This document shows positions 62,312 to 63,001 of a stretch of 64,000 nucleotides of DNA, in pieces. This DNA comes from Escherichia phage EC.P1. The notes under the pieces were generated by a model. It worked only from the letters and a program-made list of their open reading frames with translations, ran no database searches and was not told where the DNA came from. Both the position numbers and the translations under genes were made by a program. The stretch lies in the sequence record PQ657772.1; one strand, given 5' to 3'. Each line of letters starts with the position of its first letter. The stretch's first letter is position 1.

Positions 62312-62514
62312 TCACTTCGTTCTCTCGTAACTCAAGAAGTCACTACGTTTACTTCGTAAACTAGTTCCTTCTGAAAATGATAATGTACTTTAAAAGCTTG
62401 ACGGGATTTGTTGAGGACTATTTCATCCCCCCGCAGGGGAATGAAGGTAATAAAAAAGAGACAATTAAGTCTCTCTTGACGATGATGGCATCGGATATTA
62501 TCGAATTGCGAATT

Positions 62515-62530
62515 TCTCAAATTTTGGACG
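62515..62530. repeat. 16-nt iteron-like direct repeat TCTCAAATTTTGGACG (copy 1)
   Basis: Exact copy at 62668-62683; inverted near-copy at 62545-62560. Confidence 0.7.
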
Positions 62531-62667
62531 GATCTTTCCTGTACCAAAATTTAGAGAGCGAAAGCGGGTTGCTCGGTTTCTCTCTATCGCAGTCATATGC
62601 AACGGTCGCTGGTCTTTTCATCAACAGCACTCAGTACTAAACTCTATTCGATCAAAGTAGTACCTGT

Positions 62668-62683
62668 TCTCAAATTTTGGACG
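62668..62683. repeat. 16-nt iteron-like direct repeat TCTCAAATTTTGGACG (copy 2)
   Basis: See 62515-62530. Confidence 0.7.
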
Positions 62684-62972
62684 CAACTTTCTTGTAAAAT
62701 CGCGTCCACAATCCTTGAACTCCCTTAGCAAATTCGTAAGGTGCGAACCTTATACATCTATCTAGGAACTCTCTGTGTGCTTATTGGAGTTCTTTATACA
62801 GCCGTGTCGCCGTGATTCGTGGTCTTATCTCGTGTTTGTTTGATTGCCAGTACTCTAACAGGTTTCTTTTGCTGTTCGCTACAACGGTAAAGCTCATCTA
62901 TCCTTTACATTTTCAAGAGAAGTAGGTTCTCATTATCCATTTTTCAATGTCCGTTGTCATTTTACAATATAC

Positions 62973-63000
62973 ATTATATCACTAGGATGTATTATGTCCC
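62973..63000 (-). promoter_or_regulatory. sigma70-type promoter (GGGACA-N16-TGaTATAAT) firing into ORF-free region
   Basis: Identical hexamers and spacing to 50766-50793; immediately downstream of stop of 63002-63415. Confidence 0.6.
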
Positions 63001-63001
63001 G

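Follow-up and report, generated by a model that had tools for sequence, protein, structure and literature searches.

A probable gene for a large pseudoknotted RNA shared by RaK2-like jumbo phages and enterobacterial islands

Introduction

To our knowledge, only about a dozen classes of bacterial and phage RNAs exceed 400 nucleotides (nt) and have complex conserved folds, and large conserved structured RNAs have historically proved to be ribozymes or the cores of ribonucleoprotein machines. Here we consider a 690-base-pair (bp) spacer, positions 62312–63001, in a 64,000-nt stretch of Escherichia phage EC.P1 (PQ657772.1). The whole stretch is called the window; coordinates are those of the window, and RNA-strand features lie on its minus strand (−). 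A preliminary description had presented the spacer as a region free of open reading frames (ORFs) with a repeat, hairpins and a promoter, and each of these features is indeed found where it had been placed. The spacer is very probably a minus-strand gene for a structured RNA of a new family. This family of large pseudoknotted non-coding RNAs (ncRNAs), found in jumbo phages and enterobacterial mobile islands, is apparently previously undescribed; the literature searched, including the fEgEco12 and CBB genome papers, does not mention the element, and an earlier description is not fully excluded.

The closest described systems include the GOLLD and ROOL RNAs, large ornate ncRNAs with Rfam families of their own that phages and prophages often carry and which a preprint reports as multimers by cryo-electron microscopy (bioRxiv 10.1101/2024.12.08.627333). 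The present family shares with them a length of ~0.5–0.8 kilobases (kb), an intricate fold with many covarying helices and conserved unpaired nucleotides, and an existence as stand-alone genes on phages or mobile elements. It differs in having no sequence or structure match to them (cmscan), in being hosted by Enterobacterales rather than by Bacillota or rumen and lake bacteria, and in having 4–5 paralogues per genome and no association with tRNA clusters, the 64-kb window being without a tRNA. OLE RNA (~600 nt, Bacillota) is similar in size, ornate fold and high conservation. However, OLE is chromosomal, single-copy and flanked by the partner genes oapA/B/C, whereas here no conserved partner gene was seen and there is no Rfam match.

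Four putative long ncRNAs, ncRNA001–004, which are ORF-free, supported by RNA sequencing and 236–619 nt long, have been reported in PA5oct (Lood et al., 2020, PMC7318152), a jumbo phage that is a distant relative of the RaK2 group. They likewise number four per genome and hold no ORF, but no structure has been reported for them. Considered as expressed homologues, they were rejected, as they show no similarity to the nhmmer profile of the family. The element can be assigned to the large ornate ncRNAs borne by phages or mobile genetic elements, which form a descriptive class and not a homology family: it is longer than 400 nt, has covarying helices and conserved unpaired nucleotides, contains no ORF and is carried by phages and mobile elements.

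A covarying fold on the minus strand

The fold was modelled on an alignment (A1) of 43 non-redundant copies (<94% identity) read on the minus strand. RNAalifold returned 67 pairs, 44 of them with compensatory changes, and two pseudoknot helices seen in earlier alignments were added. The model thus obtained contains 82 pairs in 15 helices, including two pseudoknots; 58 pairs show changes in both partners. Standard pairs occupy 94.9% of the cells, compared with 76.7 ± 0.4% after shuffling and 37–46% when partners are slid by 1–3 columns; the covariation score is 0.496, compared with 0.168 for shuffled and ~0.08 for slid partners. On no measure did any of 500 shuffles attain the value observed. 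Read on the minus strand, the 568-nt sequence has a folding energy of −154 kcal/mol, compared with −125 ± 5.6 for dinucleotide shuffles (z −5.1), and the GC content of the spacer is 0.40–0.44 as compared to ~0.26–0.35 in the flanks. The structured RNA that the preliminary description listed among several options is thus borne out, both by the folding check that it proposed and by compensatory changes far beyond the controls. The model comprises the following features.

62399–62966 (−): structured RNA body, with a conserved core of ~568 nt, or ~517 nt if the 3' end lies at the U-run at 62452; it may reach ~62330 (basis: nhmmer and blastn homology, A1 covariation, z −5.1 of the minimum free energy (MFE), and the strand test below)
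62878–62957 (−): 5' pseudoknot, in which 62957–62950 pairs with 62888–62881 inside the loop of hairpin 62893–62891/62880–62878
62957–62950/62888–62881 (−): helix 1, 8 bp, 7 pairs compensatory
62893–62891/62880–62878 (−): helix 4, 3 bp, 2 compensatory
62925–62915/62905–62898 (−): helix 2, a hairpin within the span of the 5' pseudoknot, 8 bp, 7 compensatory
62798–62875 (−): domain closed by helix 5 (62875–62871/62802–62798), with 3 of 5 pairs compensatory, 99% paired
62861–62859/62812–62810 (−): helix 6, the inner helix of that domain, nearly invariant
62766–62792 (−): helix 7, hairpin 62792–62787/62771–62766, all 6 pairs compensatory, with up to 4 Watson–Crick pair types per pair
62633–62665 (−): helix 9, hairpin 62665–62654/62645–62633, 12 pairs, all compensatory, 85% paired
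62652–62646 with 62506–62500 (−): helix 10, a pseudoknot made by the loop of helix 9, 7 bp, 7 of 7 compensatory, 99.3% paired
62500–62632 (−): central core with helices 11–14, namely hairpin 62628–62625/62611–62608 and helices 62591–62587/62511–62507 and 62584–62580/62564–62560

A stretch of ~50 nt (plus-strand 62559–62607) is near-invariant in every subfamily, and the core is kept even in RaK2-type phages.

The transcribed strand cannot be read from single-sequence MFE, which does not differ between strands (mean 0.2 ± 9.8 kcal/mol). Counts of G.U pairs on structures predicted from one strand were rejected as circular (297:48 for plus, 215:37 for minus); because they are biased by construction, they were replaced by a strand-symmetric wobble test. 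This test takes internal pairs with both flanks at least 85% Watson–Crick and at least one flank covarying, and asks whether their non-Watson–Crick cells are G.U or A.C. In the plus reading, 76 cells are A.C and 2 are G.U; the minus reading turns those 76 into G.U wobbles. Pairs predicted on both strands lean modestly towards the minus strand as well (61 A.C against 34 G.U cells in the plus reading), and the RNAalifold consensus energy is −134.2 kcal/mol for minus and −123.2 kcal/mol for plus. The RNA is therefore placed on the minus strand by the wobble test, at 76 to 2, together with a −10 box present in every copy of the alignment.

Promoter and 3' region

That −10 box belongs to the following promoter.

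62973–63000 (−): promoter with −35-like GGGACA (63000–62995), a 16-nt spacer and extended −10 TGATATAAT (62981–62973)

GGGACA-N16-TGATATAAT is the best hit of the promoter scan (score 10/12), with a predicted transcription start at ~62965–62968. Its −10 stands at the same place in 43/43 non-redundant copies (TATAAT in 32, TATACT in 10, TACAAT in 1) and is TG-extended in 37 of them, which upholds the leftward promoter of the preliminary description. The −35 box of the family is unusual (GGGACA, TGGAAC or TGAAAC), and the copies in bacterial islands keep the box too. In the window, YGGGACA-N13-TGATATAAT occurs three times as compared to 0.2 expected (63001–62973, 50794–50766 and 31789–31761, all on the minus strand), and the latter two precede minus-strand protein genes. 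A 'divergent RpoD-like' promoter with TGAAACG at −35 and a classic −10 has been described in CBB and GAP32, mainly before DNA-synthesis genes (PMC5259590). YGGGACA-N13-TGATATAAT looks like the Asteriusvirus version of this class and may represent a phage-specific, perhaps middle-type, promoter class. Overall, a folded RNA gene with its own promoter is well supported.

Towards the 3' end, three features follow the core.

62452–62477 (−): intrinsic-terminator-like hairpin, core GAGAC/GUCUC at 62473–62458, then U6 at 62457–62452; −10.8 kcal/mol, z −3.3
62422–62445 (−): G+C-rich 3' hairpin UUCAUUCCCC-UGCG-GGGGGAUGAA, conserved; −16.9 kcal/mol, z −4.2
62399–62411 (−): 3' motif AAAUC(C/U)CGUCA(A/G), with near-invariant columns in all subfamilies

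The first of these is the terminator-like hairpin noted earlier at 62448–62480; it is present as described and optional in the family, as the hairpin with its U6–7 run occurs in 24/43 copies and is absent in 19/43. Its stem sequence covaries among copies. In the G+C hairpin (helix 15), one-sided U.G to C-G changes are compatible with pairing on the minus strand alone. CGUCA recurs at 62476–62481, and in other genera two more covarying hairpins are found past the G+C hairpin and the CGUCA motif. The RNA probably exists as a ~517-nt form and as longer read-through forms. As a separate observation, the motif CAAAUCCCGUC (62401–62411, minus strand) is complementary to GACGGGAUUUG, which we take to lie near the 5' end of Escherichia coli transfer-messenger RNA (tmRNA; ssrA); ~0.1 such 11-mer matches are estimated by chance, and the match may be coincidence.

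Comparison with known RNA families

The covariance-model search suggested in the preliminary description yields no family: at gathering thresholds, Rfam 15 (4227 models) gave no hit in the whole window and no match to the element in four bacterial loci. Relaxing the limit to E 10 on 62200–63100 gave just three weak matches (E 2.8–7.4), all far below gathering. The model set included GOLLD, ROOL, OLE, HEARO, raiA, RNase P, tmRNA, 6S, group I/II introns, phi29 pRNA, hammerhead and other ribozymes, and riboswitches. ARAGORN found 0 tRNA or tmRNA genes in the 64-kb window. Resemblances spotted by eye to the hammerhead (CUGANGA on the plus strand), RNase P and tmRNA segments were discarded as lying on the wrong strand, lacking Rfam support, or both.

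Hfq-type small RNAs are ~50–300 nt long, with a terminator hairpin, a U-tail and a short seed region. The small RNA proposed in the preliminary description does not fit a transcript of 517–568 nt or more: the element measures at least ~517 nt, has 15 helices and lacks the terminator in 19 of the 43 copies.

Copies in jumbo phages

The window DNA belongs to an Asteriusvirus (RaK2-like jumbo coliphage), and the spacer region is 100% identical to Ecwhy_1 and fEgEco12. Relative to the PBECO4 group, the spacer is 95.8–95.9% identical and 1.7 kb including the flanking genes 90.4–90.5% identical, so that the flanking genes are by arithmetic ~87% identical; the spacer is conserved better than its flanking genes. 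In the comparison with related phages proposed in the preliminary description, the spacer aligned at ~67–71% identity over ~475 nt to Mimasvirus (GAP32, CBB), Eneladusvirus (fHe-Yen9-04, Serratia BF, Erwinia phages), Salmonella 7t3 and Munch, and Xanthomonas XbC2. In Alcyoneusvirus phages, the sole segment detectable by blastn is query 248–296, and RaK2 has a diverged full-length copy adjoining its sigma-factor gene (nhmmer E 1e-50). BLAST finds 3–5 places per genome across relatives, and the family is present, at 4–5 copies, in every RaK2-like jumbo phage examined.

A search of Ecwhy_1 with the nhmmer profile (positions 1–250,299, minus a 2.2-kb gap) located four paralogues, and BLAST likewise found four places in the record. 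All lie in unannotated gaps of 660–840 bp and share one orientation.

Copy A, Ecwhy_1 1001–1661: adjoins a sigma-factor pseudogene
Copy B, Ecwhy_1 113484–114323: between the baseplate-hub cluster and endonuclease VII, both on the plus strand
Copy C, Ecwhy_1 198633–199322: the window copy
Copy D, Ecwhy_1 249413–250097: hypothetical genes nearby

Within the window, the spacer has no paralogue except an internal 30-nt repeat. B-type copies have a plus-strand terminator ahead of the RNA locus and a late-type promoter after it, and copy B can therefore be regarded as an insulated unit transcribed against its neighbours. In seven B-type copies, a conserved TAAATAC resembling the T4 late promoter TATAAATA also stands between the promoter of the RNA and the start of the endonuclease VII gene.

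In EC.P1, the spacer is flanked by the minus-strand genes 61883–62311, without a Pfam match, and 63002–63415, a DUF7325 protein annotated as structural. Further out on the minus strand are a Dps-like 'starvation-inducible DNA-binding protein' (61412–61852) and, truncated where the window ends, the 3' portion of a gene for an HNH homing endonuclease (63811–64000). In the phage neighbourhoods checked, no rep or terminase gene adjoins a copy of the spacer.

Copies in bacterial islands and metagenomes

Scanning metagenomes and bacterial assemblies for the core pattern GCGGGTTGCNCNGTTTCNNNCTATC gave 45 metagenome loci and 7 bacterial-assembly loci, nearly all of them full-length or contig-truncated homologues. 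A looser core pattern in IMG/VR gave 120 loci, of which only 6 were real, all from jumbo-phage contigs. The plasmid collection yielded no family match, and a copy is carried by 2 of 5426 complete E. coli genomes.

Island hosts include Enterobacter (Enterobacter chinensis), Silvania, Serratia, Buttiauxella and other Enterobacteriaceae. The copies in these hosts are a longer subtype of ~760 nt within a recurrent gene module in the order resolvase, LprI-like, 286-aa (amino acid) membrane/coiled-coil protein, Ner-like helix-turn-helix (HTH), CI/S24-type repressor, RNA, integrase and host genes. The repressor gene is divergent from the Ner-like gene, the integrases are of the large serine or tyrosine type, and each RNA copy lies between the CI-like repressor and integrase genes with its own promoter. 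Directly upstream of this promoter, several island copies have a perfect palindrome, CCCTATAAATATC-N4-GATATTTATAGGG, which has the appearance of an operator and might serve the adjacent CI-like or Ner-like regulator. PADLOC and Pfam on the island neighbours recognized LprI, Ner-like HTH, resolvase, CI/S24 repressor and serine/tyrosine integrases, and nothing RNA-related. Between proteins adjoining island copies and those adjoining phage copies, no homologue was found, the only match being an unlinked DUF4326 protein.

That match comes from E. coli LR-29-1, in which a ~10-kb island (locus L088, 6072–16416) lies between ybaA and ffs and holds the RNA in a 1.4-kb unannotated gap. This island also carries a resolvase, dual-OB, DUF488 and DUF4326 proteins, IS3 and integrase fragments; the DUF4326 protein has a homologue in a phage genome (L012, 11510–11827). 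The LR-29-1 RNA is of the jumbo-phage type (TATAAT −10, hairpin and U6), unlike the longer subtype of the repressor/integrase islands. A 2.8-kb contig of a 'Clostridium sp.' metagenome-assembled genome (DPOH01000171.1) also carries a copy of the island type, almost identical in sequence to those of enterobacteria; this contig is probably mis-binned or a contaminant and does not argue for a presence of the family in Clostridia. Strong purifying selection acts on the family in RaK2-like jumbo phages and in enterobacterial integrative islands.

Possible functions of the RNA

The best overall explanation, to which we assign a probability of about 0.7, is a stand-alone minus-strand structured RNA gene, with action of its product in trans as the likeliest mode. 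E. coli RNA polymerase would start at ~62966 from YGGGACA-N13-TGATATAAT, possibly aided by a phage factor recognizing the unusual −35 sequence, and would transcribe leftward through the fold. Part of the transcripts would end at the hairpin and U6 (62452–62477), at ~517 nt, and others would continue past the G+C hairpin and CGUCA motif to ~62399 or beyond. The weakest step is the last, in which the RNA would act in trans as a folded particle, whether as a ribozyme, as a scaffold or as a decoy for some conserved factor of the host or the phage. Action in trans is suggested because the copies have unrelated neighbours, a promoter each and their strongest conservation on unpaired core nucleotides, and because no gene in the same direction follows copy B or the island copies. 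Taken on its own, this step has slightly less than even odds.

Several points weigh against this explanation. The transcript ends and abundance of all family members are predictions. No partner protein is common to the phage and island contexts, and no ligand, target or catalytic motif has been identified, so that the claim of action in trans rests on exclusion. The terminator-like hairpin lies inside the conserved element, with ~50–170 nt of conserved and partly covarying sequence downstream, and the 3' end is uncertain. An origin or another cis-acting element could also account for multiple dispersed copies in the same orientation and for their sharing with small islands in which no replication gene was seen over 8–24 kb, and promoters of this class have been described ahead of DNA-synthesis genes in CBB (PMC5259590).

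A more far-reaching reading is a new RNA machine common to RaK2-like jumbo phages and small enterobacterial integrative islands, with a promoter that would respond to a phage-specific factor recognizing TGAAAC/GGGACA. Such a machine might have ribozyme activity, assemble itself into an RNA particle, or be a folded RNA for replication or packaging, copied by satellite-like islands to exploit or block an infecting jumbo phage. Both the machine and these roles are speculative, and we consider them unlikely on balance.

The main rival, which we hold to be improbable but well ahead of the other alternatives, is an RNA-primed replication origin. A structured pre-primer would form a persistent RNA–DNA hybrid near the G/C-rich 3' hairpin and prime the leading strand, and islands with one copy would be replicated by the infecting jumbo phage, as satellites. 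The RNA II of ColE1 is a ~550-nt folded pre-primer, and the R-loop origins oriF and oriG of T4 fire from middle-mode promoters. The present element is comparable to RNA II in length and fold, being a promoter-driven transcript (promoter in 43/43 copies) with a defined fold of 517–568 nt. Like the T4 origins, which are several per genome and fired from non-early promoters, it occurs in several dispersed copies per genome, in one orientation whatever the local gene direction, and neither known system needs a dedicated initiator protein. The phage encodes RNase H, and the islands show no replication gene in the 8–24 kb seen while retaining the unusual −35 box, whose promoter class precedes DNA-synthesis genes in both CBB and GAP32 (PMC5259590). 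However, the ~50-nt invariant core and two pseudoknots exceed known primer-RNA requirements, and the core is far more conserved than in these systems and is pseudoknotted. Of an AT-rich unwinding element, a DnaA box and an iteron array, none was detected in conserved form, and neither an origin nor an RNase H transition site could be identified. The promoter scan showed no clear antisense promoter like that of RNA I, the only plus-strand promoter-like hits near the RNA 5' end (62941–62995) being weak (9/12) and directed away from the RNA. The 3' region, where priming would occur, varies, its hairpin and U-run being absent in 19/43 copies. GC skew has no inflection at copies A, C and D, but it follows gene orientation and is thus uninformative on origins rather than contrary.

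Much less probable is a cis-acting leader or attenuator, in which the fold would set the balance between a stop at 62452–62477 and read-through into gene 61883–62311. The window copy does have a terminator-like hairpin between the fold and this next co-directional gene, no further terminator follows and conserved sequence continues past the hairpin. Yet the preliminary suggestion of a leader for gene 61883–62311 specifically does not hold across the family: the genes downstream differ among the four paralogues, and copy B and the island copies have no co-directional gene downstream, converging instead on the endonuclease-VII-cluster or repressor genes. A constant position in the 5' untranslated region of a related co-directional gene, as in leaders and riboswitches, was not found in copies A–D, B among them, or in the islands. 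The terminator is not general (missing in 19/43 copies), Rfam is negative, and we know of no riboswitch that approaches 517–568 nt.

Less likely still in our estimation is a site that proteins recognize on double-stranded DNA, for instance an iteron origin, a pac site for packaging or another binding array, with the repeats as binding sites. It was suggested by the repeats: TCTCAAATTTTGGACG occurs exactly at 62516–62531 and 62669–62684, inside a 30-nt direct repeat (62514–62543 and 62667–62696, 90% identical, 153 bp spacing), and an estimated ~5e-5 exact 16-mer pairs are expected by chance in 690 nt. Each copy of TCTCAAATTTTGGACG has an inverted partner, and the element is also multi-copy in the genome. 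Read on the minus strand, however, both copies of TCTCAAATTTTGGACG form the 3' arm of a hairpin.

62515–62557 (−): module at site 2, first 'iteron' with its inverted partner, extending helix 62557–62555/62517–62515; −16.5 kcal/mol, z −5.2
62672–62714 (−): module at site 1, second 'iteron' in its 3' arm; −19.0 kcal/mol, z −5.3

This hairpin module of ~30 nt (consensus GUACAAUAUAGAUCCGUCCAAAAUUUGAG) is found at site 1 in 28/43 copies, at site 2 in 19/43, at both in 7/43 and at neither in 3/43. As it is nearly obligatory yet occurs at either site, it is probably a peripheral docking or protein-binding element, needed at least once and tolerated at either place. Iteron-type origins have at least three directly repeated 17–22-bp sites, usually beside a rep gene and an AT-rich unwinding region. 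Here, 16-mers are likewise repeated in a non-coding region, but they are two, non-tandem and variable across the family, one or the other usually being absent, and the neighbours are DUF7325 and gene 61883–62311 rather than rep or terminase. The exact 16-mers and inverted copy of the preliminary description thus exist, whereas their reading as origin iterons or a packaging element is not supported. Conservation tracks base pairing, and duplex sites would not yield compensatory double changes in 58 of 82 pairs or strand-specific G.U pairs; this covariation largely refutes the duplex-DNA reading. The GNRA hairpin reported earlier is a misreading of the plus strand: GCGAAAGC (62558–62565) exists only as plus-strand text and reads GCUUUCGC on the RNA, where it forms the 3' strand of helix 13 (62584–62580/62564–62560), in which A-U to G-C and G.U to A-U changes keep pairing.

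A decayed or frameshifted protein-coding gene has a negligible chance: an 87-aa ATG ORF is present (62377–62640, plus strand) and ORFs of similar length are open in a few other copies, but just 3 of the 42 other non-redundant copies match the 87-aa frame across 70 aa or more and most have it broken, the longest ORF per copy (48–138 aa) changes frame and strand with none kept family-wide, spacer indels among copies are not multiples of three, and substitutions follow compensatory pairing and not third-codon-position variation. The spacer is thus non-coding, as first described, and a protein clearly encoded here by relatives, which would have spoken against that description, was looked for among the 43 copies without finding a conserved frame. 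GenBank records of relatives (121Q gene 516; fEgEco12, WPEC3/5 and SD-x_S1x phages) annotate 1–4 small 'hypothetical protein' ORFs over RNA loci, which are very likely spurious calls.

Significance

The family adds a large structured RNA class in the best-studied host group, E. coli and its relatives, where it is genetically tractable, and corrects spurious 'hypothetical protein' annotation over the spacers in many GenBank records. Its carriers, the RaK2-like jumbo phages, are therapy candidates. The occurrence of one RNA both in phages and in islands, beside a repressor/integrase switch, is a natural experiment that asks whether the island copy aids or blocks the phage.

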